From Bradymonadia bacterium (GTDB lineage: Bacteria; Myxococcota_A; Bradymonadia; UBA7976; UBA1532): a stretch of 64,000 nucleotides of DNA. Every line of letters begins with the position of its first letter. Position 1 is the first letter of the stretch. The stretch covers positions 153,470 through 217,469 of the forward strand of contig JBMHDS010000085.1 in assembly GCA_049889275.1 (NCBI GenBank). Reading direction: 5' to 3'. Below the pieces are notes generated by a model. The model saw only the letters and a list, made by a program, of their open reading frames with translations, was not told where the DNA came from and made no database searches. This document shows positions 3,263 through 24,465 of this stretch, piece by piece. Made by a program: the position numbers and the translations under genes.

Positions 3263-3275
3263 TACAGGAGCACAC

Positions 3276-4574: not shown

Positions 4575-4576
4575 TC

Positions 4577-6082
4577 GTGGCGCAAGACAGCGACACAGGC
4601 CGCCATCCGACTGCACGAACTCGAACGTTCTACCTTGCTTACGCTGCCATCGTTCTCGGAGGCTTGGTTCTGCTCGGTGCACTACTGGTCGACGATAAGG
4701 AAACCGCGACAGAGCAATTAGAGGCTTCCAGTGCGCGTTCGGTAGAGAATCCAAAAGGCGGCCACAGCGCTGAAGCCACCAAAAAGGGCGACGAGTTCAA
4801 GGCCAAAAGACCATCGCCTGCAGAGGTATCCACACGAGAGCCCCTCCCGTCTCAGCCCCCTCAGGACACCGTCGTTGCACCACCCCCGCCCACCGAGACG
4901 GGGGCACAAACCAGTCTGATTAAGCCCGCCATTGCGCGCAAGAATCCTGACCTGATGCCAAAAGGAAACCCAAGTCCGCTCATCAAGTCAGGTGAGCTTG
5001 GACGCGGGCAAACCGTTGGTGGCGCCCTCCAGAACTTTGGCGTTGGACATCAGACGGTGACCGGCATCATCGCAGCGCTTGACGGCCTGTATGACTTCCG
5101 AATCGCTCAGCCTGGTGCACGCTTTGAAGTGCAACTCACCCCCGAGGGCCAACTCAAGCGATTTCAATTTGAGCATGATCTCATGGAGGTGTACGTCGTC
5201 GAGAGAGACGCACAAGGAAAGTATCGTGGCCGACAAGCGCTCGTGCCTGTCACCACCACGGTCGAGGCTATCGGTGGTCGTGTCAAAGGGAGCCTGTATG
5301 CCACGATTAAGGCATTAGGTGAATCATCGAGCCTGGCGAGTAAACTTGTGAGCGTCTTTGCCTGGGATCTGGATTTCTACAAGGACAGTCGAGAAGGCGA
5401 TCGCTTTAAGCTTGTCGTAGAGAAGCACTATAAAGACGGTGATTTTGTTCAATATGGACGTGTACTCGCCGCCGAGTATGTCGGTAAAAAGGGTATATTC
5501 CAGAGTTTTTGGTTTAAGCCCAGCGATCAAAATGACGGCGGTTACTTTCTAAAAACTGGCGAGAGTGCAGAGAAGGTCTTTCTCGCAACCCCGCTCAAGT
5601 TCGCCCGTGTCTCAAGCGGCTTTAATCGCAAACGCAAACATCCGATTCTTGGCTATACCAAGGCTCATCTGGGCGTTGACTATGCAGCACCGCGCGGAAC
5701 CCCGGTCTGGGCCATGGCTCGCGGCAAGGTGCTCTTTTCAGGACGAAAGGGGCCCAGTGGAAACCTTGTGCGCATTGACCATGGCAACGGCTTGGTGAGC
5801 GCATATGCCCACCTGCATCGGATCAGAAAAGAGGTCAGGAAAGGGGTCTCTGTAAAACAAAAACAGGTCATCGGGTATGTGGGCTCAACGGGTAGAAGTA
5901 CTGGCCCACATCTGCACTTCGCGATTCGCAAGAAAGGCAGATATGTCAACCCCCGTGATGTGAAGGTCGGACGCCTCAAGTCGGTGCCCAAAAGGCACAA
6001 TCGTAAGTTCCGCAAGGTCGTCAAGGAGCGGATGAAGCAGCTTGAAAAACTCGATGTGAGTCAACCGACCGGTGCTCAATGA
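4577..6082 (+). CDS. M23 family metallo-endopeptidase (MepM/EnvC-like) with N-terminal TM anchor and Pro-rich linker
   Basis: HLGVDYAAP, GNLVRIDHGNG, GSTGRSTGPHLHF M23/LytM motifs; N-terminal hydrophobic helix. Confidence 0.85.
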   Translation: MAQDSDTGRHPTARTRTFYLAYAAIVLGGLVLLGALLVDDKETATEQLEASSARSVENPKGGHSAEATKKGDEFKAKRPSPAEVSTREPLPSQPPQDTVVAPPPPTETGAQTSLIKPAIARKNPDLMPKGNPSPLIKSGELGRGQTVGGALQNFGVGHQTVTGIIAALDGLYDFRIAQPGARFEVQLTPEGQLKRFQFEHDLMEVYVVERDAQGKYRGRQALVPVTTTVEAIGGRVKGSLYATIKALGESSSLASKLVSVFAWDLDFYKDSREGDRFKLVVEKHYKDGDFVQYGRVLAAEYVGKKGIFQSFWFKPSDQNDGGYFLKTGESAEKVFLATPLKFARVSSGFNRKRKHPILGYTKAHLGVDYAAPRGTPVWAMARGKVLFSGRKGPSGNLVRIDHGNGLVSAYAHLHRIRKEVRKGVSVKQKQVIGYVGSTGRSTGPHLHFAIRKKGRYVNPRDVKVGRLKSVPKRHNRKFRKVVKERMKQLEKLDVSQPTGAQ

Positions 6083-7593
6083 GTGATGAAGCGGTCGACA
6101 GCGACGAGCAGGCGATGCCGCCAACATGGTTGGATCGGGTCATTCGAAGGTACAAACGTCTGCTTTTCTTTGGTGGACTCACTTGGGTAGGCTTACTCCT
6201 CGCCGGCGGCATTGTACTCAGTAGCGTGGAGGCGAGAAATGGCCTCAACATCTTTGGACAAAAAGAGTGGCTCGCGGGCCAGCACACCGCCTTTCGCGTC
6301 AGCTTAGAGGATCTTCAATTTGGCACACGACGACCGCTTTCGAAGGTGAAGGTTCGCCTGAGCAACGTCAACATCCCGTACTCTGACGCTACGTTTGTCT
6401 TGACTGAACGCGTAGGAGACTACGTACAAGGCACCATTCCTGTGCCAAAGGAGCCCGGCAAATGGCAGGTGGAGTTTGAGACCGAAGACGTCGACACCCC
6501 CCTGTTTGCGCGGACTGAAGTCAGCGTTGTCAAAGGCGAGGAGACAGTTCTCGAGCACCCACTTACGTTATTTAAGAAAGGTGAACGACAAGAAGGACCA
6601 AGGTTACTGAATCTACGGCCCCTGCATGGTGAACTCCCAAGCGAGCTTGAGTCTAAGGTTGTCGTCTATTCATCGGTTGAGGGTACAGATCTAGCCGAGC
6701 CGATCGACTTGGATGTTCGCGAGGGAGCCAGCAAAAAGCCACTACCCACCCAGGTACGAGTGAAAGAGAATGGACTGCGTGTACTCGATATACAGTCCGT
6801 CCGTCCTGCCTGGGCCATTGAACTTTCAACGGCGAGCAGCCGTGTTGAGACCGCGTTGTACCCAAAACCGCATCAATTTGGGATAGAACTACCCAGTTTG
6901 ACCGATCAGACAGAAATTGAGGTCTCTGTGACGTCTATCGCAAAAACGGGACCGATCTTCTTTGACATCTGGTTCAACGGATATTGGCTGCTGACTCAAG
7001 CGGGGGTACTGGAAGACGGTGCTTATGCCGGCCGCCTTCGGCTGCCCCCTAGCCTGCCACAGGGTCAGCCAGTCTGGCTCCAGGTCTATAACAACACCTA
7101 CCAGCCTGGAAACAACCGCGCGGGACGTCACATCATAATCGGCGATAAGCAGGACCATCGTGTTCTCGAAACATTGGTGGCGATGTTTAGGGTTGAGAGA
7201 CCCGCGACTCGCCATTTCCTCAAGAACTTGGTGGGCGATATCGAGAATGCGGCTTTTCTACTGGGTCTGATCAAGTGGCCGATCCATGATCCGCCGCTCC
7301 TGGCAAACTCTGGGCTAACGGTTCGACAAACGGTGAGCACAGTGAAGGGCATGTGGCAGCGTCGCCTCGCTTTTGCGTTTATCGCGACGGCAATCGCTCT
7401 ATTGCTGGGCATTTTATTTTTGCTGAGACAAAATCAAAGAGACGTGACCCATGCTTGGAATCAACTCTCAGACAGCGCTGGTATCGAGGTTGGCACGAGA
7501 CGCCGTGCATGGCTCGATGCGGCCCTTCTCATCGTTGTTGTGATCTTGTTTTTGGGCGGACTGCTCGCCATCGTTAATTTCGTAAGATGGTAG
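6079..7593 (+). CDS. Hypothetical membrane-anchored protein (N-terminal TM, large extracytoplasmic domain, C-terminal TM pair)
   Basis: ATGA overlap with the preceding M23 peptidase gene (translational coupling); hydrophobic segments at both ends; no recognisable catalytic motif. Confidence 0.55.
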   Translation: MSDEAVDSDEQAMPPTWLDRVIRRYKRLLFFGGLTWVGLLLAGGIVLSSVEARNGLNIFGQKEWLAGQHTAFRVSLEDLQFGTRRPLSKVKVRLSNVNIPYSDATFVLTERVGDYVQGTIPVPKEPGKWQVEFETEDVDTPLFARTEVSVVKGEETVLEHPLTLFKKGERQEGPRLLNLRPLHGELPSELESKVVVYSSVEGTDLAEPIDLDVREGASKKPLPTQVRVKENGLRVLDIQSVRPAWAIELSTASSRVETALYPKPHQFGIELPSLTDQTEIEVSVTSIAKTGPIFFDIWFNGYWLLTQAGVLEDGAYAGRLRLPPSLPQGQPVWLQVYNNTYQPGNNRAGRHIIIGDKQDHRVLETLVAMFRVERPATRHFLKNLVGDIENAAFLLGLIKWPIHDPPLLANSGLTVRQTVSTVKGMWQRRLAFAFIATAIALLLGILFLLRQNQRDVTHAWNQLSDSAGIEVGTRRRAWLDAALLIVVVILFLGGLLAIVNFVRW

Positions 7594-7594
7594 T

Positions 7595-8278
7595 CTAGCG
7601 CTGCTTCGCGCTGAGGCACAGCACGTGCTCCGTGAGGGCGTTGATCCCCGCTTCCAAGAATCGAGGTGGTATATTCTCAACCTGATGGGAGTCCAGAACC
7701 TGGACATCGAACTCTGGTGAGAAAAGTTCTTTTACCGCCTGAACAGGAACAGAAAATGGCGGTCCTTCGGTCAGGTTTTGATCGTATTCGAGGGTGACCA
7801 TAAGGCCTCGACCACCTGGTTTAACCAAAGACTTCAGAACATTTACGTATGCCACGCGCATCGTTTGTGGAAGCGCAACGATGGCTGCGCGGTCAAAGAA
7901 CGCATCGAAAGTTCCAATCGATTGTGCGGTCAGCTCTAGAAAATCACCACAAATGAGTGTGAGGTCCCCATTCTCAAATAACTCATAGTCGCGCTGCACT
8001 GTCTGTTCACAATGCCAATCATGCTCATCGATAAACTTTTCGATCGCGCGACGCGACAACTCAACCCCCACCGTCGAGTGCCGTTCAGAAAGCCAGTTGA
8101 GATCGAGGGATTTACCGCACAGCGGTACGAGAACTCGACGCTTTTGCTCGGACGTGATGTCTGACCACCATTTGGTCAGATTCGGATTCACGGACTCTCG
8201 ATGAAAACCAATCCGATTAGATGCCCACCGCTCTTGCCAAAACTCTCTCTTCATCTCTCGTTCCTCGTTGAGCTCCAT
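7595..8278 (-). CDS. tpm: Thiopurine S-methyltransferase family (Tpm) SAM-dependent methyltransferase
   Basis: FWQERWASNRIGFH...NPNLTKWW...RVLVPLCGKSLDLNWL motifs characteristic of the TPMT family. Confidence 0.75.
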   Translation of the reverse strand: MELNEEREMKREFWQERWASNRIGFHRESVNPNLTKWWSDITSEQKRRVLVPLCGKSLDLNWLSERHSTVGVELSRRAIEKFIDEHDWHCEQTVQRDYELFENGDLTLICGDFLELTAQSIGTFDAFFDRAAIVALPQTMRVAYVNVLKSLVKPGGRGLMVTLEYDQNLTEGPPFSVPVQAVKELFSPEFDVQVLDSHQVENIPPRFLEAGINALTEHVLCLSAKQR

Positions 8279-8293
8279 AGACTCGATACTCAG

Positions 8294-8335
8294 CCAAAAA
8301 AAAGGCCAATTGGATACAAACCCAACTGGCCTTCT
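8294..8335 (-). terminator. Rho-independent terminator downstream of dnaK
   Basis: On the minus strand, AAGGCCAGTTGG...CCAATTGGCCTT hairpin followed by T8, 25 nt after the dnaK stop. Confidence 0.6.
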
Positions 8336-8358
8336 TTAAAGTGAGCAATCAACCGTTC

Positions 8359-10260
8359 CTAGGTGGTTTCCTCAAAGTCAGCATCGATGACATCATCATC
8401 GTTGCCACCCGGAGGATCCATATCTGGTCCTGGTGCACCGCCAGCATTAGGTGCTCCCTCTGGCCCGGCCTGGTAGAGCTTCTCCGCGAGCGCATGGCTC
8501 TTCTTGGTGACCTCTTCAATCGCCGCCTCGATAGCAGTCGTTTCATCACGCTCTACAGCTTCTCGGAGAACGGTCAACGCTGCCTCGATGTCACTCTTCT
8601 CAGCCTCGTCAACCTTATCGCCGAGTTCGGTCAGCAGTTTTTCAGTCTGATACACCAACGAGTCACCTTGATTGCGGGTATCGATGGCCTTGCGCTTCTC
8701 GGCATCAGCCGACGCATGCTCCTCGGCGTCGCGAACCATATCTTCGATGTCAGTGTCACTGAGACCACTCGACGCGGTGATCGTCACTTTCTGCTCTTTA
8801 CCCGTCGCCTTGTCGACAGCGCTGACTTTGACAATACCGTTGGCATCAATATCGAATGTCACCTCAACCTGCGGTACAGCACGCGGAGCCGCGGGAATGC
8901 CCTCGAGGTTAAACTTGGCCAAGGTTCGGTTCTGAGGCGCCATCGGCCGTTCACCCTGAAGGACATGAACTGTCACCGCGCTTTGATTATCTGCCGCTGT
9001 CGTAAAGATCTGACTCTTTTTCGCAGGAATCGTTGTATTCCGTGGGATCAGAGTTGTCATGACTTCGCCAAGCGTCTCGATACCGAGAGAGAGTGGTGTC
9101 ACATCCAACAAGAGAATATCTTGGACGTCACCAGCAAGAACGCCAGCTTGAATCGCCGCCCCTAGAGCCACGACCTCATCAGGATTGACACCCTGGTTGG
9201 CTTTTTTACCAAAGAATTTCTCAACCTCGGCTTGCACGAGCGGCACCCGAGTAGAGCCGCCGACCAAGATGACTTCGTCGATGTCGCCCGCCTTCTTTTT
9301 TGCATCCGCGAGCGCTTTCCGACAAGGCTCAAGGGTACGCGCCACTAGATCGCTGATCAGCTGTTCGAACTTCGAACGACTCAATCTCAAATTGAGGTGT
9401 TTCGGGCCTGTCGCATCCGCGGTCAAGAATGGCAAATTAATGTCTGTTTCAGGTACACTCGAAAGCTCGATCTTCGCCCGCTCTGCTGCTTCCTTCAGAC
9501 GCTGCAAGACCATCCGATCTTGGCCAACATCGATGCCTGATTCTTTCTTAAACTCAGCGATGAGGTAATCGATGAGGACGTCATCGAAATCGTCACCTCC
9601 AAGGTGTGTATCACCATTTGTCGCTTGGACCTCGACGACCTCTTCGCTCACCTCTAGAACCGAGACGTCAAAAGTACCGCCACCAAGGTCGTAGACGACG
9701 ATCGTTTCATCCTTCTTCTTGTCGAGACCGTACGCCAACGCAGCAGCGGTGGGTTCGTTGACAATGCGCTTGACTTCAAGTCCTGCGATCTTGCCCGCAT
9801 CTTTGGTGGCCTGTCGCTGGGAATCATTGAAATACGCCGGCACGGTGATCACCGCCTCGGTGACTGGCTCGCCGAGGTATTTTTCAGCGGCACGCTTCAA
9901 TTTCTGCAGAATTTTCGCTGAGATCTCAGGTGGAGCGAGTTTCTTATCGCCTATCTCAATAGCGACGCTGTTGTTCTTGCCAGCGACCACCTTGTAAGGC
10001 GTCCGTGCCGCCTCTTTTGAAGCTTCTTCATAACGAAGCCCAACGAATCGCTTTACACTAAAGACTGTATTTTCTGGATTCGTGATCGCTTGGCGACGAG
10101 CAACCTGCCCCACCAAAACCTCATCATTTTGGTCCCATGCAACTACCGACGGCGTTGTACGCGCGCCCTCTTCATTCGTAATGACTTTCGGTTCCCCACC
10201 ATCCATGACTGCGATGACGGAGTTCGTCGTTCCTAGGTCGATACCGATGATCTTGCCCAT
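8359..10260 (-). CDS. dnaK: Molecular chaperone DnaK (Hsp70)
   Basis: [33 protein letters not shown] signature motifs; 633 aa. Confidence 0.97.
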
Positions 10261-10529
10261 CTGGCTAATCCTTTCGAAACATGCTCGGAAACGGTTTGCG
10301 GGAGATCTGGCTCCCAGACGCTGGGAAAATAATCACCGGCATTCGGGTGTCAACTGATGAAGCAAAAAAAATTATGTCCGATTGTTCTACATCGAATAGG
10401 CGACACATTCTTGGTCGCGAACATGTACTCGGAGCAAGCCCGGGCTCTCGGCGCGGTCATTTGGGTGTTCGATGCCGCTTGCGCTACGGTCACACCGACA
10501 GACATCTAGATGGGAAGACGCAGACGGAA

Positions 10530-11333
10530 TCAAAAATCGCCATTGATGGTGATTGAACTCTCCGATTCGTTGCCATGAAGCGCAATCAGCCCTCCATCAC
10601 CGAAGAGCGCGAGGGAAAGACCGCTCAGCAACGCTGCGGCCCCCACTCCAAAAGCAATATTCGCAGCAAAAGCCATGTCCTCGGCTTGGTCGCTCAATCG
10701 CCCAAAATCTCGTCGATATGTGCTGCGGATCTCTTTCGATGAGGCCTCTTCCGCTATGCTAAGGGCCCGTGTGCCGAAAAATGCGCCTACGCCAATACTG
10801 ACGAGGCCACCGGCAGCTGTCGCAGCGCCGATGTCCGACATTGACCATTTGCGCCAACGAAAACTGCTGCCGCCATCGCCCTCCTCATCGCCCAGTTCAA
10901 GCGGCCAAGTGACCTCCGTTAAACGGCCCGGGCTGGCATTGACCTTCGTGCTTCCTGTAATTTTAGCGCCTGTCTTGAAGACCACTTTATGTGCGCCAGG
11001 GGCGAGTGTCCAAGCTCCAGGCAGTGGCGTCTTACCAATAACCTCACCATCGAGTTCGACGGTGTAGCCGGGCTTATCTGTGCGGACACTGAGTTGGGTG
11101 GGCGCACTGGCGCGTGTCTTAGACTGTTTTTTCTTGTGCGAAGCGCCCGCCGCCTGAGTTTCAGTTTTTTGTTTTGCTTTGGCCTCGCCTTTAGCGGCCG
11201 TGCCAACAACGGGCTGAGCGAGCGCGGCGCTCGTTACCCACAACAGTCCAACAAAGGCTAGGCGCGCACATAACGTGCTATTCCTGTAAAAACATTGATT
11301 CAAATGGGTCACGAAACAACCACCTCTCCACAT
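10530..11333 (-). CDS. Secreted/membrane PEGA-domain protein
   Basis: Start moved to an internal ATG with a GGCGGAG ribosome-binding site (RBS) 15 nt after the lnt stop; signal-like hydrophobic N-terminus; PEGA-like motif YTVELDGEVIGKTPLPG; C-terminal TM segment. Confidence 0.5.
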   Translation of the reverse strand: MWRGGCFVTHLNQCFYRNSTLCARLAFVGLLWVTSAALAQPVVGTAAKGEAKAKQKTETQAAGASHKKKQSKTRASAPTQLSVRTDKPGYTVELDGEVIGKTPLPGAWTLAPGAHKVVFKTGAKITGSTKVNASPGRLTEVTWPLELGDEEGDGGSSFRWRKWSMSDIGAATAAGGLVSIGVGAFFGTRALSIAEEASSKEIRSTYRRDFGRLSDQAEDMAFAANIAFGVGAAALLSGLSLALFGDGGLIALHGNESESSITINGDF

Positions 11334-11347
11334 CGCTCCGCCAGCAT

Positions 11348-13039
11348 TCAGACCGCCCGCCGGCGTATTCGGCCCCAAAGGTACCACATTAGTGCCAAAG
11401 CAACAGCCATCCACGGAAAGAAGTCTCCGATCCGTTGATATATCGTTGCATTCGTGAGCAATGGAACCGACCACATGATTCGCTCCGGCTCATACATTCG
11501 CGTTGATTTGACAACCCGCCCATTTACATCCACAAAAGCACTCACACCGGTCAAAGTGCTGCGCACAAATGCAGTCCGATGTTCGATTGCTCGCGGTACA
11601 GTGAGCGCAAAATGGAGATAGCGTTCAGCGGTCTTTCCAAACCAATCGTCATTGGTCAAATTCGCGATAAAGTGGGCCCCCTTACCACTCAAATTCCGAG
11701 CAAAACCGGGCAAAATCCCCTCATAACAGATCAACACGCCAATACGAACTTCACCGACATCTGGAAACTCGGCCGACAGTACGTTGACTTTATCACCTGG
11801 CTCGAGTCGACCCGCTGACGGTATATATTTGTAGAACCAGGGCATCCATTCGATGAATGGCACATATTCTCCGAATGCCAGCAGGTACACTTTGTCGTAG
11901 GCACCGCTGACTCGCCCCTCTCTATCGAGCAAAAACGCGGTATTTCTTGGGATGTACGGTCCATCCCCTTCCCATCGCGGACCATTTGACGGTGCAATGC
12001 TCGTCGTGCCGAATAAAAGTGGAACGTCGAATCCCCGCTGAGGCGAGTTACGATCTTTGACCGGTGTACTGCGATCGTCGCGCCATCCCTTTGCCAACGG
12101 CACCATCGATCGGGGAAATGAGCTCGCGTTGCGATTTAATGGCCTTGCTCGATAGGCACTCTCAGGCCAGATGATAAGATCAGCCCCCTCCTCTGCCAAC
12201 TCTTGCGAAAGCCTCTGTTGGATCAATAAGTGGTCTCGTTGACGTTCAGCAGATTCAACTTGAAAAATGCCGACGTCGCCCTCTGCCACCCCGACGTTCA
12301 GCCGCTTCGCTTTGTGCATTTGTTCGTCAAAGTGAGCCATTCGAAAGAACCCATAAACCAGCGTCGAAGCCAGCATTAACACGGTCAGGTAAGTGGCCCT
12401 CATCGGCTTTGAACGGCCCTCGAGAAAAGCGCGCAGCCACAGGTAGAGTACGGCATTGACGCGATAGATCAGAAAGGTCACGGCACCAATACCAAAGATA
12501 TCGACGATCTGCATAATCGGTGGAAAAAGGTACTGACTGTTTCCCATGTACGCAGGGAATATGCGCGGCATCAAGAACTCAATCGCCACCATGACCATGG
12601 GCACAGACCACTCCACAGGCACCGATGTCGTATTGCTGATGCGATTGACAAGCCAGGCCCAGATGCCCCAAATCAAGCCCAGCTGAAGACTGTGTAGCAG
12701 CATAATCAGTATCGCGACCGGCCAGGGTAGCGCACCAAAGGTCTTCAACATTGAGGCCATCCAGTAATAGCCGCCCGTGTTGATTAAGAAACCGCAAGAG
12801 AGGCCCCAGCCGAAAGCTGCGCGGGGGGATTTCGTCCGCAACAAGAATAGAAGCGGTACATGGCTGACCCAAATCAGAGGCCAGAATGTGAATTCGGGTG
12901 CGAGTTCGGTTGGAAAAGACATGAATGTGGCGACCGCGGCCACCGAACATAGGACAACATCTGCAGGCCGCAAACTGACGATACGCTTCAGCAAAACGCC
13001 CTCGCCTGAGGCCCTGAGCACACGGTGAGCGCTGAGCAC
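11348..13039 (-). CDS. lnt: Apolipoprotein N-acyltransferase
   Basis: Multi-TM N-terminal domain plus CN-hydrolase domain (LIIWPESA, ICYEGILPG); start ambiguous (GTG/TTG candidates overlapping the upstream gene). Confidence 0.85.
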   Translation of the reverse strand: MLSAHRVLRASGEGVLLKRIVSLRPADVVLCSVAAVATFMSFPTELAPEFTFWPLIWVSHVPLLFLLRTKSPRAAFGWGLSCGFLINTGGYYWMASMLKTFGALPWPVAILIMLLHSLQLGLIWGIWAWLVNRISNTTSVPVEWSVPMVMVAIEFLMPRIFPAYMGNSQYLFPPIMQIVDIFGIGAVTFLIYRVNAVLYLWLRAFLEGRSKPMRATYLTVLMLASTLVYGFFRMAHFDEQMHKAKRLNVGVAEGDVGIFQVESAERQRDHLLIQQRLSQELAEEGADLIIWPESAYRARPLNRNASSFPRSMVPLAKGWRDDRSTPVKDRNSPQRGFDVPLLFGTTSIAPSNGPRWEGDGPYIPRNTAFLLDREGRVSGAYDKVYLLAFGEYVPFIEWMPWFYKYIPSAGRLEPGDKVNVLSAEFPDVGEVRIGVLICYEGILPGFARNLSGKGAHFIANLTNDDWFGKTAERYLHFALTVPRAIEHRTAFVRSTLTGVSAFVDVNGRVVKSTRMYEPERIMWSVPLLTNATIYQRIGDFFPWMAVALALMWYLWGRIRRRAV

Positions 13040-13950
13040 ACGAGAGAGAACTCCGCCGGCAGTTGACCCGCTCGTTCCCCATCGGTCTCGATGAGCACTG
13101 GCGCATCACCGAGCGGCTCTGCACGAATGACCCTTGCCCGATGCAAGGTCACTTTGTCGCGCTCTAAGTGGGTCCCGGCGAACAGTGCCGGTGTGCCCTT
13201 CGCGATCTCCCAAGTCGTTAAATTACCTAAACAAACAACGTCAAAGACGCCATCTGTCATCGACGCCTGCGGCGCAACATGCATACCGCCACCAAAGAAC
13301 TGGGCGTTGGCCACGACGCCATTGTAAAATGTGCCACTTAGCACAATCTCGTCGGGCTCACCTGGATCGAGAATAATGCGCATTGGCTGGTTTTTATACT
13401 TGAGTGTCCCGCGCGCCACGCCCATTAGAAAACTCGCCTTCCCGCCCAAGGCCTTCGATGACGTATTCACCGCTTCGACGACGTGGCCGGAGACACCAAA
13501 GCTCGAGATGTTAATAAATGCCCCCGTCTCCTGGTCACCGCAAGCCGTCGTGTATGCGATTCGACCGATGTCCACTCGACGTGGGTTCTCACCAACGTAT
13601 TGAACCGCATCAACAGCCGAATCTGGTAAGCCGAGACTCCGTCGAAAGTCTCCTCCGGTGCCCGTGGGTAGTATCGAAAGCACCACATCATCAACAACGG
13701 TGCCATCATCGGTCAAGCAGCCATTGACCACTTCATTATGTGTTCCGTCCCCTCCGACCGATACAATTGACCGATAGCCCGCCTCAAGCGCTTGTCTTGT
13801 CAATGTGGTGGCATGACCAGGGGCCTTCGTTTCAAAGATCTGAAAGTCCGAAACCTTGGCGCGCAATGCTTGCGCGAGACGCGGCCAACGTTTGCCGGTT
13901 GCGCCATTTGCACTCGCAGGGTTCAGAATGACAGCATACCCCTCGCTCAT
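12988..13950 (-). CDS. DAGK_cat-family lipid kinase (YegS/BmrU-like)
   Basis: AVILNPASANG...GKRW and SVGGDGTHNEVVNG motifs of the diacylglycerol-kinase catalytic domain family. Confidence 0.8.
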   Translation of the reverse strand: MSEGYAVILNPASANGATGKRWPRLAQALRAKVSDFQIFETKAPGHATTLTRQALEAGYRSIVSVGGDGTHNEVVNGCLTDDGTVVDDVVLSILPTGTGGDFRRSLGLPDSAVDAVQYVGENPRRVDIGRIAYTTACGDQETGAFINISSFGVSGHVVEAVNTSSKALGGKASFLMGVARGTLKYKNQPMRIILDPGEPDEIVLSGTFYNGVVANAQFFGGGMHVAPQASMTDGVFDVVCLGNLTTWEIAKGTPALFAGTHLERDKVTLHRARVIRAEPLGDAPVLIETDGERAGQLPAEFSLVCSALTVCSGPQARAFC

Positions 13951-14993
13951 GCGCTCTCCTCCATCCCTAAGCTTGCGAGCAAGAGACTGCTCAGTCGAGA
14001 AACCTGCCTTTTGTGTAACGAGTTTCTAAGGTGTCTTGAGCAGCCGCCTAACGCAACGATATGACTTGATTCAACATCTTCAAACAGGTCTTCTCCCATC
14101 CGCGCACCCAGCTCCGGATAGCGTCCCGCGAAGCCATCGCCTGCACCGCAACACGCCGCACGGTCCGCGTTGAGTAAAGTCTCTTCGACAGCACCCGTAG
14201 TCAGTCGTGACAAGATCTCGCTTACGATACCAAGCCACCTTGGCTCAGCAAACAGACGACAGGGATGCACGGGCACCATTGGAGCCTCGGTCACCGCTGC
14301 GATCTGCTCCATCTGATCCTCGACAAGAGACAGCACAAAGACCACCGATACGCTCTCTCGAAGCGGATCGTAAGTCGGTGACATGAGAGTCCGATAGTCG
14401 TCGGGGTCGAGACACACGATACTCTGGCAACCAACGGCTTGCGTAGTTACATGGCGTACGTGCTTAGCAAACAGGTCTGCGCGTCCTGCCTGCAAAAAAC
14501 GGCCACCGCTGTGCCAAAAAAACTCGTCAGTATAAGCATTGTCGATATCGAGGCACTTTAGAACACCGGCCCATTCTCTCAGTTCTTCGGGTTCGAGTTG
14601 GCCGGGCAGTATCAGACAATCTCCCTCGGCCGGCCACATCTCGAACGACCTTGTCAAACCCAGCTGGGCCAGCTCGTGTTCGAGCTGCGGGTTGTCGGTC
14701 CGCATACTGGCTGTCTGTACGCGTAATTTTTGAACAGCCTCGTGTACCGGATTGTCGTGTTTGCAGTGGGCTGTGCACGCGCCGCAACCAGCGCAATGGT
14801 CCCAAATCTCTGCAACGGAAGCATCGAGTTTTACAAACCCGCGCCGTACGTCATCGGCCAAGGTCATTAAGCCCCAAGGCGTCACTGCCTCACGACCCTC
14901 AGCCTCGGCTACGCCACAAGCGAATCGACATAACTTTGGGCAGAAAACACATGTCTCTACAATATCTGCAAGGTCTTCTAAATCGAGCTTCAT
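13947..14993 (-). CDS. Fe-S oxidoreductase subunit (GlcF/GlpC-like, CCG domains)
   Basis: CxxCxxxCxxxC and CAGCGACTAHC ferredoxin-like cysteine clusters plus a CCG motif (ACCGAG); start set at the internal ATG (MKLDLEDL) directly abutting the upstream gene stop. Confidence 0.7.
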   Translation of the reverse strand: MKLDLEDLADIVETCVFCPKLCRFACGVAEAEGREAVTPWGLMTLADDVRRGFVKLDASVAEIWDHCAGCGACTAHCKHDNPVHEAVQKLRVQTASMRTDNPQLEHELAQLGLTRSFEMWPAEGDCLILPGQLEPEELREWAGVLKCLDIDNAYTDEFFWHSGGRFLQAGRADLFAKHVRHVTTQAVGCQSIVCLDPDDYRTLMSPTYDPLRESVSVVFVLSLVEDQMEQIAAVTEAPMVPVHPCRLFAEPRWLGIVSEILSRLTTGAVEETLLNADRAACCGAGDGFAGRYPELGARMGEDLFEDVESSHIVALGGCSRHLRNSLHKRQVSRLSSLLLASLGMEESA

Positions 14994-15973
14994 CGAGCCC
15001 CCTCCCCCGCTGCAAGATGCTCTTCGAACTTGGCTGCAAGCGCCCGCCACCCATCATCAGCTCCCGTATCGAGGCGCCCAACACAAAGGACTGCCCCGGG
15101 TTTGAAGTCAAAGGCAGGCTGACCTTCCCACGTCCCAGCCTCGATCCAAGAGGGCCTTTGACTCGGCCGTTCGTAAGGTACGCGCTCGACCCGCTCTAGA
15201 GCTGGAAAGCACGCTCGCAAGTACGTCTCCACATCCTTCACGAGACAGCTCGATGAGAATGTTCCGGTCAACTGCCAAACAGCGCCAACGCGCTCTCCCT
15301 GCCAGTAATCAGGCTGAAGTCCGCGTGCCTGGATCGAGTTGACCGCGTCCAATAAACGTCCTCGTTCGTCAAACTCGAGACGTACAGAAATTTGCGTAGT
15401 CTCAAGCGGCCATAGCTGGAGCACGCATTCACTCAGAATGACGCCTCGCGCCCGCGGCGTCATCATGCATCGAGCGAGGTCAGGCCCCATCGAACGGCGC
15501 GGTGCTAAAGCACATCGCGTCAGCCCGGTAGCCGTCGCCGCCGTCAGCGACAAGACCATATCTCTCACAGCTCCATAGCGCGGTGAAGGGCGTGGGATGT
15601 ACTCACTTGACAGCATATCGTGAACGGTGCCACGCCGACATCCGTCGGATAACGGTCCAAGCGTGAACCCTTCATGGCGGGCCGCGGTCTCGACCGCCGC
15701 CACTGATGCCGCTGCCCCAACAACGGCGTAGCAACCCTTCCGGCTGATTCGAAGAATGCCATTCAGCGCAGAAATGTCGACCTGAATCACCGCTGGGTCA
15801 AAGTCGAAGGCCGGCGTCGAGACAACCTGCCAACGTTCAGTCGCTTGCTGAAGCCCAGTCAGTAATGAGACCGCCTCCTCATCTGATTGGACGGCGACCA
15901 CACGCGCGCCCTCACTGGAGACCAATGCGCTCCAACCGCCGAGTAAGGTGACCCTCTTCCACCGCTGAGCCAT
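14990..15973 (-). CDS. GlcE-like FAD-binding subunit (degenerate PCMH domain)
   Basis: GPDLARCMMTPRARGVILSECVLQLWP resembles the FAD-linked oxidase motif (GYDL..GSEGTLG..) but with substituted glycines; TAATG overlap with the upstream oxidase gene. Confidence 0.5.
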   Translation of the reverse strand: MAQRWKRVTLLGGWSALVSSEGARVVAVQSDEEAVSLLTGLQQATERWQVVSTPAFDFDPAVIQVDISALNGILRISRKGCYAVVGAAASVAAVETAARHEGFTLGPLSDGCRRGTVHDMLSSEYIPRPSPRYGAVRDMVLSLTAATATGLTRCALAPRRSMGPDLARCMMTPRARGVILSECVLQLWPLETTQISVRLEFDERGRLLDAVNSIQARGLQPDYWQGERVGAVWQLTGTFSSSCLVKDVETYLRACFPALERVERVPYERPSQRPSWIEAGTWEGQPAFDFKPGAVLCVGRLDTGADDGWRALAAKFEEHLAAGEGAR

Positions 15974-17496
15974 TAGCGCATGACCTTCCCTGGGTTCATG
16001 ATACCCACTGGGTCGAGGGTTGACTTCAATGCGCTAAAAACATCTACAGCAGAGCCGTTTGCTGCCGCCATGTGTGACATTCTCGATAGCCCAACGCCGT
16101 GATGATGCGCGATGGCGGCACCGGCCTGCAGTGCCGCATCGAGGCCAGCATGCCAAGCCGCACGGTATTTTGTGCGGATTTTTTCAACGCTAGGCGCGCT
16201 TCCTGCCATGGTAAAATAAATGGAACACCCACCTGGATACACGTGAGAGAAGTGGGCCATGACGACCACATAAGGGGCCATCGCCCGCCTGACAGTATCG
16301 TAAACTTGATAGACATTTTCCCAAGTGGTGGCCACCTCAAAGGTGTCGACGAAACAGCCTGCGCGATACAGTTTACTCTGCTTGAAGCTCACATCGTAAC
16401 GATGGTTCATCCAGGCCCGGGCTGGACCTTCTCCCTGGTCTTCTCCGCCGTGCTCACGAGCAATATGGGCGAGGCTATCTGCGGTCATTCGCGACTCTTC
16501 AATACTGCCCTCGGACACCGTGATCGCTAACACAGGCCCTCGCCAGGCTCTCACAAAGGCATTCGATAAGCGTGCCTGACCGAGCGCGAAACGAAGCGCC
16601 CCCTTCTTAGACGTCCCCCCTCGGGACGGCCCGCTGAGTAACCCTCTCAAACGACCCGAGAGCCCATTCATGGACTCGTTGGGATCGGCGCCAACCATCC
16701 GCGTATCGAGTGGGTCGTACATTCTGAGTACAGCTGGCCGTAAACCACCGATCATAGCATCTCGAAAGAATCCGAGACCCGACTGAATATCCGGCATCAG
16801 CCACGCTCTGAAGTGCCGGGCTGCTGGAAATTGGTGCAGACGCAAAGTCGCCGCGGTGATCACACCGAGTGTCCCCTCACTCCCGATGAAGACTTGGTTC
16901 CAATCCAAGCCATCAATTTGACTCGGCGTCTTTCGAACTAGCCCATCAGCTGTGACCACTTCGAGGCTCTCGACCATGTCTTCGATCTTACCGTAGCGCG
17001 AGCTGCATTGGCCCGCCGACCGAGTCGCAACCCAACCACCTACGGTCGAACACAAGATGCTCGACGGGAAATGACCCAAAGACAGGTCACGCCGATTTAG
17101 CCAACGTTCAAAACGTTCCCCGTTATATCCAGCTTCGACTTCTACAATGCGTTTCGTCGTGTCGAGTGCGCGAATGCGTCTGAGACCTTTCAAGTCAAGC
17201 ACCACTGAGCCCTTGGCCGGCACAGTACCGCCACAGACACCGCTGCCGGCGCCGAAGGGTACAATGGGTACGCGCTGATTGCGGCAAACATCGATCACCC
17301 GGGCCACCGACGCGACATCATTTGGATAAGCCACATACTGCGGCGGAGTGAGTTCATCACCGCACAGGCGGTCGAGTTGCATCTGTGGCCAGAGATCGCG
17401 GGCGTAGGCCCGTTTGGTCGCCTCACCGAGGCACACTTGTGCATCTGAGAGCGCGCCGACGAGGCCGCGATATAGTTCGGTGCTTGCTTCGGTCAT
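15973..17496 (-). CDS. FAD-linked oxidase, VAO/PCMH family (GlcD / D-lactate dehydrogenase / alkyl-DHAP synthase-like)
   Basis: PFGAGSG...GGTVP FAD-binding PCMH domain, GSEGTLGVIT, and C-terminal IAHHHGVG (a His-His-His variant of the usual SxEHGxG motif). Confidence 0.8.
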   Translation of the reverse strand: MTEASTELYRGLVGALSDAQVCLGEATKRAYARDLWPQMQLDRLCGDELTPPQYVAYPNDVASVARVIDVCRNQRVPIVPFGAGSGVCGGTVPAKGSVVLDLKGLRRIRALDTTKRIVEVEAGYNGERFERWLNRRDLSLGHFPSSILCSTVGGWVATRSAGQCSSRYGKIEDMVESLEVVTADGLVRKTPSQIDGLDWNQVFIGSEGTLGVITAATLRLHQFPAARHFRAWLMPDIQSGLGFFRDAMIGGLRPAVLRMYDPLDTRMVGADPNESMNGLSGRLRGLLSGPSRGGTSKKGALRFALGQARLSNAFVRAWRGPVLAITVSEGSIEESRMTADSLAHIAREHGGEDQGEGPARAWMNHRYDVSFKQSKLYRAGCFVDTFEVATTWENVYQVYDTVRRAMAPYVVVMAHFSHVYPGGCSIYFTMAGSAPSVEKIRTKYRAAWHAGLDAALQAGAAIAHHHGVGLSRMSHMAAANGSAVDVFSALKSTLDPVGIMNPGKVMR

Positions 17497-17658
17497 TGAT
17501 AGGGATTAACCGGTCAGGGCCCTCGGATCAAGGCATTCTTACCGTTGCGACTCGGCGTGGTTAAACCTTGACGCAGGCACGCTGTCCCTGGATGCGCGGA
17601 CGACAACTGTTGATGATATCTTGATGCATTAATCACCCAAGCTGCTTATGCTGCCAGT

Positions 17659-18366
17659 ATGAGCCGAAGTTTAATCATAGCAGCGCTGCTCTTCGCCTGG
17701 ACAGAGGGGGTCGCACGAGAGCCTCTCCGCAACGATAGAGACCCGATCCTAGATTCCGAACAAGCACCTGAAAACAAACGACTCAAGCGCCCAGACTCAG
17801 CGCCCAATGGGCTCATCGTTCGCAGCAGTGGCTTAATCTACTTCGGAGACGTCCACAGCTACCTCTTACCGGAGCAAAGTCGTCTACTATCGGGTGCTCG
17901 CCCGGGTCTCGGGTTTGGACTCGGCGCCCGTGTCGGGGCCCGTTTAGAGTTGGCTGTTGATGTGAGCCTGGGGTTAGGCAAGACCTTCGAGATCGACAGG
18001 CCTCAAGGGAAGAGCGCCTTTGATGTGCTCATCGATCCCCGCGTACACATCCATGTCGTAGAGCATGACCCGTTGAGTGTTTATGCGGGCCTTGGTGTCC
18101 TCTTTGGCCTCTTTGACCTTGAGAAGTCTGGCGTGAGCCAAGCTGGACTCGGCCCCAGTCTATCCGTTGGAGCGCTGCTCGCAATCGACCGTCACTTCGG
18201 CCTGTTTATTGATTTGAGCGGCTCTTATTTCTACGACGCGCTCGCCTATTCATATCGTGAAGATGAGACGGGCTTTGGACAATCAATGGAACGTCTGTCC
18301 AAGGAAGAAGGCGACTGGTTCAGAATATATCGCATGACCTTGGGATTACGTTTGGCTGGTTTTTAA
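17659..18366 (+). CDS. Small outer-membrane beta-barrel protein (hypothetical)
   Basis: Signal peptide; alternating hydrophobic pattern; C-terminal beta-signal ...LGLRLAGF ending in Phe. Confidence 0.5.
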   Translation: MSRSLIIAALLFAWTEGVAREPLRNDRDPILDSEQAPENKRLKRPDSAPNGLIVRSSGLIYFGDVHSYLLPEQSRLLSGARPGLGFGLGARVGARLELAVDVSLGLGKTFEIDRPQGKSAFDVLIDPRVHIHVVEHDPLSVYAGLGVLFGLFDLEKSGVSQAGLGPSLSVGALLAIDRHFGLFIDLSGSYFYDALAYSYREDETGFGQSMERLSKEEGDWFRIYRMTLGLRLAGF

Positions 18367-18749: not shown

Positions 18750-19793
18750 TTAGCCAACCGCAGCCGTAGTGGTTTGTTCCACCGACTTGGAAGATGAGAA
18801 CATTTGACTGTACATCTTCACACTTTCGATAGACTCAAGCCCAAGAATCTCGGCCAGAGCGACGGGGTCTTCATTCTGTGCCCAGTACTGCAACGCAAAT
18901 GTATTGCGCAACAGCTGGGGCGAGGCTGTCACCCGCGCGAAGGTTGCGTGTTTGCGTACAACTCGCTGCACACCATTGATGCTCAAGCGACCACGCTCAC
19001 CCACGAACAGCGGCCAGTCACTCAGAGGCCCCATCGCATCGAAGGGCATCGGTGAGTTTGGCAGCGTCTTCAAAGCCGGTACCTGTGCCGGGTTCGGTGG
19101 TTCAATGCTGTCAGAAGGAGGCCAACCACCACTTGCAGGCAGCACGATCTCACCATCGGCCGGCAACTCGAGCAATCCGCGTTCACCAAGACTCCAAGCG
19201 AGTTTGCGTGCCGCTCGAGTCGGTAACGGCACCACCCGGGTGTACTTTGAACGCACCGTCAACTCACCGCTTCCGAAATCCACGTCGCCCACATCGAGGT
19301 CGACAAGTTCGCTGATACGCATACCGCTATCGAGTAACGCGTAGATAATTGCTTGGTCTCTAAAGCAGCCTCGACGGTCAACGTAGTTGAGCAGTTGGTG
19401 GACATCCTCTGCGGGCATTACACGCGGTGCACGCTCGGCTCTCTTCAGCTTTGCTTCATCGCGTATCGCGCTCACAGTCACGTCATCCACGAGCCCGTTC
19501 GCCCCTAACCAGACAACATAGCTTCGTGCGAAAGCCAGTCGGCGTAATACGGTTGATGGGCTACGGCCTTTTCGCTCCGAATCCCGCCGCCAGCCAGCGA
19601 CCACATTGGCCGAGAGCGCGAGTCCGTCGAATGTCTCACCTTCGCTGCGACGGTACCAGATGGTGAGGTCCTGCCAATCTGAACGGTAAGACCGTGTTGT
19701 CGATGCGCGTCGACCACGCAGTTCCAACCATCCAAGGAATTCATCGAAGCGCTCACACTCAGCAGGTGTCGCAAATCGGTTTGAAATCGTCAT
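18750..19793 (-). CDS. Tyrosine recombinase / phage-integrase family protein (recombinase A), with substituted catalytic histidines
   Basis: SAM-like N-terminal domain (TTRSYRSDW), box I GMRISEL, LLRNTFA and C-terminal ...VKMY; His positions of the canonical HxLRH...GH...Y pattern read Q/N and L. Starts 82 nt downstream of the flagellin A stop on the same strand. Confidence 0.8.
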   Translation of the reverse strand: MTISNRFATPAECERFDEFLGWLELRGRRASTTRSYRSDWQDLTIWYRRSEGETFDGLALSANVVAGWRRDSERKGRSPSTVLRRLAFARSYVVWLGANGLVDDVTVSAIRDEAKLKRAERAPRVMPAEDVHQLLNYVDRRGCFRDQAIIYALLDSGMRISELVDLDVGDVDFGSGELTVRSKYTRVVPLPTRAARKLAWSLGERGLLELPADGEIVLPASGGWPPSDSIEPPNPAQVPALKTLPNSPMPFDAMGPLSDWPLFVGERGRLSINGVQRVVRKHATFARVTASPQLLRNTFALQYWAQNEDPVALAEILGLESIESVKMYSQMFSSSKSVEQTTTAAVG

Positions 19794-19875
19794 GTCTATC
19801 TCCTGGCAAATTCTGAGGAAGCCGTAGGACTCAGCCTACGGCCGGTTTGATTCACTGCGACCGAATGTCACGCCT

Positions 19876-21288
19876 TTACTGAAGGAGAGACAGGGCCTGC
19901 TGTGGTACCTGGTTTGCCTGTGCCAGGATGGTCGTTGCAGCCTGTGTAAGGACCTGATTCTTAGCTAAGTTTGCTGACTCTGCAGCGAAATCAGCGTCCA
20001 AGATACGGCTTTTCGCTGCTGCTGCATTCTCTGAAACCGATGACAGGTTGTTGATCGTGCTCTGCATTCGGTTCTGCACAGCACCCAACTCGGCTCGGTC
20101 AGAAGCGATCTGTTGAATCGCGCGGTCTAAGATGAGCAAGGCATCATTAGCGCCCGGCCTCGTGGTGACATCGATGGTATCAACGGTGTTATTGGCTGTG
20201 ACGGCGACGATGGCATTTGGCACCATACCGATCTCGCCTTCACCACCCCCACTGACCTCAAACTGTGAGTCGGAGACAAGACGCAATCCGGCCCGAGTCA
20301 CGTCGCTATTGAGACCGGTAACAGCACCCGCGTTACCGACCACATTCACTTCAATGTTACGCCCATCGGCGGCCACCAATTCAATCCGTCCGTCATCGTC
20401 TCGGCGAGCCAATACACCCGTTTCGGTAAGGTCGGCGTTGATTGCATTGATGAACTTCTCATCGGCATCATCCTGCTGCACGCTGAATCCAGTAAAGATT
20501 CGACCGTTAATTTCCACATAGTTGGACTCGTCCAAGACACCACCGCCAATATCACCTGTCGCTGCACGCTCCGTCTCGGTCACGTACGCCGTCACCCCGG
20601 TGAACTCAGTGAAGTCATTGATCGCAGCTGCCTTAGCGATAGCCGATGCTGTTCGCTGAGTGGTACTGATTTGGTCGTCCACAAGCTGTGTTGCACGGAC
20701 CGTGACACCGTTGATTGTCAAAGCGTCATTGCCAATGCCATTCGCACTCACCGGACCCGACTGAAAGCTCGCGACTCGGCCAATGGTTTGGGAGCGGGCA
20801 TCTCGCACACGGACTCGGATACGCTCTTGGAAGTTCATACCGATATGGAAGAACTTATCATTGAAGGTGCCGTCTAGGAGTTTTTGCTGGTTAAACGTCG
20901 TCGAGTCACCGATACGCTGCAATTCGTCCGTGAGCTGCTTCACTTCGTTTTGAATCGCTTCACGATCGGCGGCCGTATTGACGTCCGATGCTGCCTGAAC
21001 TGCGAGCTCGCGCATTCTTTGTAGTACTGCAGTCGACTCTTGCAACGCACCCTCGGCGACCTGTACCAAGCTGATGGCGTCGTTGGCGTTCCGAATCGAC
21101 TGGTTCAACCCGCGCACCTGGCTGTTGAACCTCTCACTGATGGCCAGACCTGCCGCATCATCAGCGGCGGAGTTGACTCGCAAACCGCTCGACAAGCGCT
21201 GGAAGCTTGTACCGAGTCTCTTGCTGCTACCGAGCAAGTTGCGCTGTGCATTGTTGGCGAAAGAATTCGTATTAATGAAAAGGCCCAT
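19876..21288 (-). CDS. fliC: Flagellin (flagellin A)
   Basis: Canonical D0/D1 N-terminus (INTNSFANNAQRNL...LSSGLRVNSAADDAAGLAISERF) and C-terminus (LAKNQVLTQAATTILAQANQVPQQALSLLQ); variable central region; GGAGGA RBS 7 nt upstream. Confidence 0.95.
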   Translation of the reverse strand: MGLFINTNSFANNAQRNLLGSSKRLGTSFQRLSSGLRVNSAADDAAGLAISERFNSQVRGLNQSIRNANDAISLVQVAEGALQESTAVLQRMRELAVQAASDVNTAADREAIQNEVKQLTDELQRIGDSTTFNQQKLLDGTFNDKFFHIGMNFQERIRVRVRDARSQTIGRVASFQSGPVSANGIGNDALTINGVTVRATQLVDDQISTTQRTASAIAKAAAINDFTEFTGVTAYVTETERAATGDIGGGVLDESNYVEINGRIFTGFSVQQDDADEKFINAINADLTETGVLARRDDDGRIELVAADGRNIEVNVVGNAGAVTGLNSDVTRAGLRLVSDSQFEVSGGGEGEIGMVPNAIVAVTANNTVDTIDVTTRPGANDALLILDRAIQQIASDRAELGAVQNRMQSTINNLSSVSENAAAAKSRILDADFAAESANLAKNQVLTQAATTILAQANQVPQQALSLLQ

Positions 21289-24333: not shown

Positions 24334-24465
24334 TTTGTATCTCCTTTGTCACTGACACTTTGCTAGGGCGCACACACCTGTCCTGTTCGACACGGCTCAA
24401 GCGAGCTGTCGTCGGAGAGCGCGCGCGCTCAGTTTTGCTTTAGTCGTTCACTTTGGTGCTAAGGC

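Follow-up and report, generated by a model that had tools for sequence, protein, structure and literature searches.

A widespread AGPS-family flavoprotein linked to an Fe–S subunit and a lipid kinase suggests an undescribed bacterial glycerolipid route

We describe a six-gene cluster from a Bradymonadia bacterium in which the first three products appear to form one enzyme, with a catalytic subunit related to alkyl-dihydroxyacetone-phosphate synthase (AGPS) and an Fe–S subunit for electron transfer. The cluster lies in a 64,000-nucleotide stretch of DNA (assembly GCA_049889275.1, contig JBMHDS010000085.1, positions 153,470 to 217,469; hereafter the window) and encodes an AGPS-like flavoprotein (alpha), a degenerate relative of it (beta), an Fe–S protein (gamma), a lipid kinase, apolipoprotein N-acyltransferase (Lnt) and a PEGA-domain protein. 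By comparative sequence analysis the system is real, widespread and uncharacterised, and it points to an undescribed bacterial route of glycerolipid or ether-lipid metabolism. Tentatively, we read the complex as a redox-coupled member of the AGPS family that acts on a glycerolipid headed by dihydroxyacetone phosphate (DHAP) or glycerol-3-phosphate (G3P), a reading in which the substrate, the direction and the involvement of quinone are suggested by sequence and gene context. AGPS itself is a textbook flavoenzyme that makes no net redox use of its flavin adenine dinucleotide (FAD), and it carries out the committed step of ether-lipid synthesis.

An AGPS-type active site predicted in alpha

Alpha matches the Pfam families FAD_binding_4 and FAD-oxidase_C. 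Among all PDB sequences its top match was Dictyostelium AGPS (2uuu; E = 7e-53 over alpha residues 46–505), followed by guinea pig AGPS, with D-lactate and D-2-hydroxyglutarate dehydrogenases aligning chiefly through the FAD domain. An AlphaFold2 model of alpha (predicted local-distance difference test score, pLDDT, of 81.8) likewise had AGPS as its top Foldseek match (4bby; E = 7e-31, template-modelling (TM) score 0.80). AGPS (EC 2.5.1.26), which has a bacterial representative in MXAN_1676, is thus the closest solved relative of alpha by sequence and by fold, the two sharing the two-domain VAO/PCMH architecture. Identity is 28% to the Dictyostelium protein and 28–31% to the canonical enzymes.

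The original prediction had pointed to an IAHHHGVG motif in this oxidase as resembling the His-His-His triad of AGPS, and the resemblance extends to two further catalytic positions. The His-His-His loop (guinea pig H615–617) corresponds to alpha H464–H466 in IAHHHGVG, the catalytic Tyr (Dictyostelium Y508, guinea pig Y578) to Y427 (SIYF), and an Arg (Dictyostelium R352, guinea pig R419) to R258 (VLRMYD), with all three invariant in alignment A1; residues of the Dictyostelium enzyme were mapped with a SEQRES offset of 3. In a review of AGPS, Dictyostelium R352, Y508 and R447 are named as residues that matter for catalysis, Y508 being the proposed base. Alpha and all of its relatives carry LRxYD, SHxYxxGxxxYF and HHHGxG, in contrast to LEMMD, FHAGDGNMHP and GEHGIG in the glycolate dehydrogenase subunit GlcD, and HHH[GA]xG was found in 135 of the 150 best family representatives.

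A comparison with GlcD, which the original prediction had proposed, showed that alpha does not cluster with it. Scores against the GlcD equivalog models were far under their cutoffs (160 against 567.9 for TIGR00387 and 104 against 897 for NF008408), and a BLASTP alignment with E. coli GlcD covered the FAD domain (31% identity) and the final 54 residues, leaving the cap domain unaligned. Alpha lacks GEHGIG and HAGDGNMH, with the Glu-His and HxxDGNxH of E. coli GlcD replaced by AGPS motifs. A small neighbour-joining bootstrap tree (numpy implementation), in which deep nodes are weakly supported, contained three firm groupings: all AGPS-like sequences set apart from GlcD on a long branch with 100% support, a canonical clade uniting Dictyostelium AGPS with a Streptomyces protein whose gene adjoins those of a short-chain dehydrogenase/reductase (SDR) and a lysophospholipid acyltransferase (99% support), and a clade of proteins of the Rv2251 type. 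Alpha falls outside the canonical clade, in a group with 40–55% mutual identity. A study from 2025 reported that the AGPS phylogeny lacked signal.

Alpha also differs from AGPS in its architecture and in its partners. Alpha aligns with 2uuu from residue 46 of its own sequence and residue 132 of the latter, which leaves alpha about 85 N-terminal residues short and without the AGPS-specific domain that contains the gating helix, and its gene is accompanied by those of a dead paralogue and an Fe–S protein, often as a fusion. On these sequence features, alpha is predicted to work at an AGPS-type active site without being a member of canonical AGPS.

A degenerate second subunit and an Fe–S subunit

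The sole Pfam match of beta is a partial FAD_binding_4 domain (9e-11), and no NCBIfam model matched it. Its best PDB match is again AGPS (1e-6), and BLASTP with E. coli GlcE gave 1e-4 over 93 residues. When aligned with alpha and with the second subunits of other loci, beta proved to have lost the PFGAGSG pyrophosphate loop (GxGS), HFPSS, most of the cap domain and the His-His-His loop. Second subunits form a graded series, which includes full-length AGPS-like paralogues (E about 1e-100 to alpha) at loci L003, L030, L052 and L061. An AlphaFold2 model of beta, built on a shallow alignment of 8 sequences, was of low confidence (pLDDT 58.9), and its Foldseek matches (TM about 0.35) speak to membership of the D-lactate dehydrogenase/AGPS fold only. 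Beta is an FAD-less, catalytically dead remnant of a duplicated AGPS-like alpha. It had been described earlier as a degenerate GlcE-like FAD subunit; the degeneracy stands and includes the loss of the GxGS FAD loop, but the origin lies in an AGPS-like paralogue, not in GlcE.

Gamma matches Pfam Fer4_8. An alignment of 28 members of its family (A2) shows CxxCxxxCxxxCP and CxxCxxCxxxC followed by two CCG domains, and the A2 profile aligned over its whole length with E. coli GlcF (hhalign 99.1%, 7e-19) and with GlpC (99.3%, 1e-20), of which gamma is a full-length homologue. In the PDB the profile matched an 'iron-sulfur-binding reductase' (4e-39) and HdrB. Gamma is thus a putative GlcF/GlpC-type Fe–S subunit with two 4Fe–4S motifs and a partly degenerate CCG region.

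The three genes recall E. coli GlcDEF (b2979, b4468 and b4467), where coupled genes specify a catalytic flavoprotein, a further protein with an FAD domain and an Fe–S subunit with two 4Fe–4S motifs plus CCG domains. The catalytic subunits differ as described above, however, beta derives from an AGPS-like paralogue without the FAD loop, and the window copy of gamma lacks the cysteines of one CCG domain. A second likeness is to the anaerobic glycerol-3-phosphate dehydrogenase GlpABC, through GlpC and through the GlpA-type genes (at L028 also a GlpB-type gene) that lie directly 5' of the AGPS-like gene in several relatives. Here the flavoprotein partner of the Fe–S subunit is AGPS-like rather than GlpA or GlpB, and there is no glpA beside the window cluster.

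Natural fusions of alpha, beta and gamma

A search of 1.84 billion representative proteins returned 1128 family clusters at E<=1e-30 (clustered at 50% identity). Among the best 150 family representatives, 44 are 780–1020 residues long and 4 are longer than 1020. The 780–1020-residue proteins that were examined (for example, P0121 and P0130) are alpha–beta fusions as judged by Pfam and by our own hidden Markov models (HMMs), as is P0046, which belongs to the window's own clade. Four proteins (P0212, P0254, P0263 and P0266) combine alpha with the beta relic and an entire gamma in a single chain, the gamma part matching the gamma-family HMM at E values of 1e-67 to 1e-77. Because natural fusions of all three exist, we take alpha, beta and gamma to be one enzyme. 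The same alpha–beta–gamma fusions led us to reject the idea that the Fe–S subunit serves GlpA only.

E. coli YdiJ is a fused FAD/Fe–S 2-hydroxyacid dehydrogenase, with a VAO-type flavoprotein joined to Fer4 and CCG domains as in the triple fusions. Alpha matches the YdiJ model through the FAD domain only, and the catalytic domains belong to different branches.

The lipid kinase, Lnt and PEGA genes

The fourth gene product is predicted to be a lipid kinase of the DgkB/YegS/Rv2252 family, with Pfam DAGK_cat and YegS_C domains, a (V)GGDGT motif, a TIGR00147 score of 120.3 (cutoff 118.65) and DgkB-type diacylglycerol kinases as its best PDB matches. Lnt scored 228 bits against TIGR00546 (cutoff 132.9) and comprises LNT_N and CN_hydrolase domains, and its WPES, YDK and ICYE motifs align with solved Lnt at the catalytic Glu, Lys and Cys, indicating an intact triad. 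The PEGA protein matches PF08308 at 25.5 bits (cutoff 20.8) and has a signal-like N-terminal segment and a hydrophobic C-terminal one. Pfam and NCBIfam together thus bore out the domain calls made earlier for the six genes.

Linkage to a lipid kinase across phyla

Conservation of the neighbourhood was assessed in 80 loci, drawn as one genome per GTDB species from at least 593 matching species genomes, by clustering the open reading frames (ORFs) and then searching them with the window proteins. Where at least 3 kb of downstream sequence was available, an Fe–S gene followed on the same strand within 8 kb in 38 of 67 loci. A lipid kinase was present in 27 of the 33 Fe–S-positive loci with enough sequence and downstream in none of the 26 Fe–S-negative ones. 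Lnt followed the kinase in 12 of 30 Fe–S-positive loci with at least 7 kb of downstream sequence, and PEGA homologues followed Lnt in the two nearest loci only (L001 and L002). The linkage of the oxidase to lipid-kinase and lnt genes, which had been put forward as something to look for in relatives, is therefore wide for the kinase and holds in a substantial minority of loci for lnt. Lnt and PEGA look like envelope genes that are co-expressed with the system in particular lineages without belonging to its core.

The order AGPS-like gene, relic, Fe–S gene and kinase recurs in Myxococcota, Bdellovibrionota and Planctomycetota; besides the latter two phyla, carriers include Bradymonadia, Microvenator, Kofleriaceae, Haliangiales and metagenome-assembled genomes (MAGs) that bear the label Archangium or Myxococcaceae. 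In Wallbacteria and Cloacimonadota the Fe–S gene lies directly 3' of alpha. Two further contigs (L088 and L090) have the same order with overlaps of 1–4 nt in the gene calls. Because the same order and the same overlaps recur in relatives, the arrangement in the window is not a product of chance.

A G3P dehydrogenase gene of the GlpA or GlpD type lies upstream in eight loci (L003, L013, L015, L027, L028, L043, L045 and L046). At L028, in a 3.4-Mb deltaproteobacterial MAG, the AGPS-like gene is part of a glpA–glpB-like operon: positions 3866–13224 encode a HAD phosphatase, a lipid kinase, GlpA, a GlpB-like protein, the AGPS-like protein and redox proteins; downstream, a C_GCAxxG_C_C 'putative redox-active protein' stands in place of the GlcF/GlpC-type subunit. 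At L088 (4984–9004), genes for a glutamine-synthetase-like protein, an Fe-alcohol dehydrogenase and an aldehyde dehydrogenase lie 5' of the AGPS-like gene; the two dehydrogenase genes are translationally coupled, and that of the aldehyde dehydrogenase overlaps the AGPS-like gene by 4 nt. This context may hint that alcohol and aldehyde (or ethanolamine) metabolism is tied to the complex.

Two other patterns were seen among the loci. Polyangiaceae (Sorangium and Polyangium; L007, L024, L064 and others) have a stand-alone AGPS-like protein of ~680 residues with an internal insertion of ~180 residues; it has no Fe–S or kinase partner, and its gene lies 3' of those for phosphatidylserine decarboxylase and a large methyltransferase-domain protein. 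An aspartyl-tRNA synthetase gene is found a few kilobases upstream of the GlpD/AGPS-like cluster in Myxococcota (L013, L027, L043–L046, L057, L065 and L077), and in Tsukamurella (L083, 12782–13362) about 5 kb downstream of the cluster of GlpD, flavoprotein and kinase.

A related flavoprotein–kinase pair in Actinobacteria

A tblastn search of plasmid records returned AGPS-family proteins 30–33% identical to alpha. Clusters in Tsukamurella and Streptomyces fungicidicus encode a G3P dehydrogenase, a TetR regulator, a FAD-binding oxidoreductase and a YegS/Rv2252-family kinase, an order that matches the one published for M. tuberculosis and BCG: Rv2249c (glpD1), Rv2250c, the flavoprotein Rv2251 and the diacylglycerol kinase Rv2252. 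From this synteny we infer that Rv2251 itself belongs to the actinobacterial flavoprotein clade. Taking Rv2251 for the mycobacterial agpS would be wrong; that gene is Rv3107c, and Rv2251 is a different flavoprotein adjoining the kinase Rv2252. The literature we searched offered nothing relevant on the function of Rv2251, Rv2250c or glpD1, nor on ether lipids in Bradymonadales.

The actinobacterial flavoproteins are 30–35% identical to alpha and have the His-His-His loop, the Tyr and the Arg, and their genes are translationally coupled to that of a DAGK-family kinase beside a G3P dehydrogenase gene. They differ from alpha in keeping the R447 equivalent and in grouping with canonical AGPS, at 65% bootstrap support. 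In cousins at a greater distance, the linked genes are those for GlpK and GlpD (Microbacterium) or for xylulokinase, UgpC and glycerol dehydrogenase (Roseibium). Taken together, the contexts of the clades and of these cousins point to glycerol, G3P and DHAP chemistry as the common theme of the AGPS-like superfamily, with the lipid kinase an additional feature of the alpha-type and Rv2251-type clades.

Gene order and flanking features of the window

The six ORFs fill positions 10530–17496 of the window in one direction (Table 1), and the first three junctions overlap: alpha and beta by 1 nt at 15973 (TAATG), beta and gamma by 4 nt (ATGA), and gamma and the kinase by 4 nt (ATGA). These overlaps, the ORFs and their coordinates are as originally described for a coupled six-gene operon. 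The stop-ATG junction proposed between Lnt and PEGA did not hold: the ATG at 11347 that abuts the Lnt stop (TGAATG) is out of frame and opens a 12-codon ORF only, and the in-frame PEGA start is ATG 11333, 14 nt past the Lnt stop. Lnt starts at TTG 12994 or GTG 13039, giving an overlap of 7 to 52 nt with the kinase stop. The sole sizeable non-coding gap bordering the six genes is the one upstream of alpha, a putative promoter region in which a sigma-70 consensus scan found nothing; promoter and terminator scans of 10200–17800 stayed at background level and were uninformative.

Table 1 Features of the six-gene cluster and its surroundings (window coordinates)
Feature	Position	Strand	Basis
Alpha (g1), predicted AGPS-family FAD flavoprotein, 507 residues	15973..17496	-	Pfam, PDB, AlphaFold2/Foldseek, signatures
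Beta (g2), FAD-less remnant of a duplicated AGPS-like alpha, 327 residues	14990..15973	-	Pfam, PDB, alignment
Gamma (g3), putative GlcF/GlpC-type Fe–S protein, 348 residues (start 14993)	13947..14993	-	Fer4_8, hhalign
Predicted soluble lipid kinase (g4), DgkB/YegS/Rv2252 family, 320 residues (start 13950)	12988..13950	-	DAGK_cat + YegS_C, TIGR00147
Apolipoprotein N-acyltransferase Lnt (g5)	11348..13039 (start 12994 or 13039)	-	TIGR00546, LNT_N + CN_hydrolase
PEGA-domain protein (g6)	10530..11333	-	PF08308
Divergent intergenic region, 162 nt, 5' of alpha; putative operon promoter region	17497..17658	.	Inferred only
Integrase	18750-19793	-	
Flagellin	19876-21288	-	
Integrase	23365-24333	-	
Flagellin	24466-25941	-	

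In the window (8359–10260) as in a second Bradymonadia MAG (L088, 16888–18795), the cluster is closely followed on its downstream side by a DnaK (HSP70) gene, which suggests conserved local synteny beyond the operon. On the plus strand of the window, positions 802–4574 encode a MaoC-dehydratase-like protein, an SDR protein with an N-terminal extension of ~235 residues and a thiolase, followed by an M23 peptidase; the first three look like a beta-oxidation-like trio. On the minus strand, two pairs of a tyrosine recombinase (Phage_integrase) and a flagellin, within 18750–21288 and 23365–25941, have the appearance of a duplicated module, which might serve for flagellin switching or inversion. The presence of flagellins in a Bradymonadia genome is noteworthy in itself.

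A proposed redox step at an AGPS-type site

In canonical AGPS, the DHAP moiety is bound as an adduct at flavin N5, with no net redox change. That alpha is often fused to an Fe–S subunit argues that the present enzyme carries out net redox chemistry at an AGPS-type site that binds DHAP. In our model, alpha, beta and gamma would make up one heterotrimer on the GlcDEF plan, with a catalytic subunit from the AGPS branch of the VAO/PCMH flavoproteins. Alpha would bind FAD and act through the AGPS Tyr, Arg and His-His-His loop, beta would probably serve as a scaffold, and gamma would carry electrons to or from the flavin, with the membrane quinone pool as the most likely partner. The most likely reaction would be the interconversion of 1-acyl- or 1-alkyl-glycerol-3-phosphate and acyl- or alkyl-DHAP by a quinone-linked dehydrogenase or reductase, after which the C1 substituent may be exchanged or released in the manner of AGPS. 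The kinase would supply the phosphorylated glycerolipid from mono- or di-radylglycerol, and the G3P dehydrogenase encoded upstream in several relatives would tie the module to the G3P/DHAP node. The alcohol and aldehyde dehydrogenase genes of L088 hint, in one genome, at a catabolic direction. The original prediction of a lipid-directed complex rather than a glycolate oxidase is supported as far as the enzyme type goes, neither of the two outcomes named as refuting it having been seen, with the lipid substrate suggested by gene context; its 2-hydroxyacyl option is disfavoured, since the motifs with which 2-hydroxyacid dehydrogenases bind metal are missing.

Several observations weigh against this interpretation. 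At the active site, Dictyostelium R447 (PYIRD) aligns with alpha Q373 (SFKQS), and the column reads SY[KR]Q by consensus in alpha's clade, some members having no basic residue, whereas canonical AGPS and the Rv2251-type proteins keep the Arg; the head group may therefore differ from that of acyl-DHAP. Mouse D-lactate dehydrogenase follows AGPS closely among the Foldseek matches of the alpha model (TM 0.76 against 0.80), so that fold alone does not discriminate between them. Pfam CCG was detected in 27 of the 28 gamma-family members, the exception being the window copy, and the cysteines of the first CCG domain are lost in this copy and in its nearest relatives, L001 and L002 (alignment A2); the second CCG domain of window gamma retains C...CCG...C, and the electron path in this sub-clade may be a simplified one. 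No Fe–S gene was found in 29 of the 67 loci, every Fe–S-type locus recovered comes from a MAG, and the actinobacterial cluster has neither a relic subunit nor an adjacent Fe–S gene. The linkage of distant cousins to soluble-substrate kinases (xylulokinase and GlpK) means that the wider family is not necessarily lipid-directed. Finally, the literature searched contained nothing on an Fe–S-linked three-subunit AGPS-like enzyme or on its link with a lipid kinase.

Alternative explanations

It is unlikely, though credible, that the complex is an ordinary non-redox alkyl-DHAP synthase for ether lipids, with the relic and the Fe–S subunit stabilising it, anchoring it or keeping its flavin oxidised. 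Such a role would fit the retained His-His-His loop, Tyr and Arg and the requirement of AGPS for oxidised FAD, and homologues go by the name alkyldihydroxyacetonephosphate synthase in JGI and in some NCBI records, within a nomenclature that is otherwise generic ('FAD-binding oxidoreductase') or conflicting. Myxobacteria do make ether lipids, by two published routes: an operon of the AGPS MXAN_1676 with a FAR–GNPAT protein, and ElbD, the main route of M. xanthus, for which there is "no apparent AGPS candidate". However, alpha's low identity to the canonical enzymes, its place outside their well-supported clade, the loss of the R447 equivalent and the missing gating domain all speak against a plain AGPS. 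Its context does so too: no FAR, GNPAT-type acyltransferase or reductase family recurs within 10 kb in the 80 loci, and none is present in the window, whereas the canonical bacterial contexts (MXAN_1674–1676 and the Streptomyces SDR–acyltransferase–AGPS genes) do include such partners. The 120 nearest homologues of the Myxococcaceae-MAG protein included none from a cultured Myxococcus, so we did not adopt the complex as the missing AGPS of the ElbD route.

A GlpABC-like dehydrogenase that takes a small, soluble substrate resembling glycerol phosphate (for example, sn-glycerol-1-phosphate, G3P or some other polyol phosphate), with a kinase only loosely related to it, is distinctly unlikely. Gamma resembles GlpC as much as GlcF, GlpA and GlpB genes are adjacent in several loci (at L028 the AGPS-like gene directly follows the GlpA–GlpB pair), and linkage to GlpK, xylulokinase, UgpC and glycerol dehydrogenase is seen in the cousins. 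Yet the kinase that co-varies with the Fe–S form is of the DAGK_cat/YegS type, with diacylglycerol kinases as its nearest solved relatives, a long-chain lipid is the substrate bound by alpha's nearest characterised relative, and the adjacent GlpA or GlpD, where present, already covers the oxidation of G3P.

That the kinase, Lnt and PEGA genes adjoin the redox module without any functional link to it is very improbable. The sparse occurrence of Lnt and PEGA, the known housekeeping role of Lnt and the unrelated genes that separate the Fe–S gene from the kinase in some loci would agree with it, but the kinase tracks the Fe–S form, junctions overlap by 1–4 nt in the window and in relatives, and Actinobacteria have an independent flavoprotein–kinase pairing. 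A genuine GlcDEF-type glycolate or D-lactate (2-hydroxyacid) dehydrogenase, which the D/E/F-like order of three genes, the Fe–S subunit, the name 'glycolate dehydrogenase' given to a Minicystis rosea homologue and glcD as alpha's top NCBIfam match by score might suggest, is barely conceivable and is rejected on the motifs, the model scores, the unaligned cap domain and the long branch separating AGPS-like sequences from GlcD.

Implications

The redox-coupled, AGPS-family complex that we favour would belong to a large bacterial family in which an AGPS-type site is wired, and often fused, to an Fe–S subunit and travels with a lipid kinase and a G3P dehydrogenase. Current annotations of alpha-type genes are uninformative or wrong. 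Many of the sampled carriers are Myxococcota (including Bradymonadia) and Bdellovibrionota, groups that are largely predatory. A related flavoprotein–kinase pair appears to exist in M. tuberculosis.

A bolder proposal, which we regard as doubtful but worth stating, is that the module constitutes a previously unrecognised, redox-coupled pathway of the AGPS type, in which the glycerol ether bond is made or broken with no need of FAR and GNPAT. The kinase would phosphorylate a radylglycerol, the Fe–S-wired AGPS-like complex would oxidise its G3P backbone to the DHAP level, and the C1 substituent would then be exchanged or released, for example as a fatty alcohol for the adjacent alcohol and aldehyde dehydrogenases. 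If true, this pathway would be common, in a simplified form, to Actinobacteria, including M. tuberculosis with its Rv2251–Rv2252, and it could supply the missing ether-bond-forming step where the canonical set of AGPS partners is absent.

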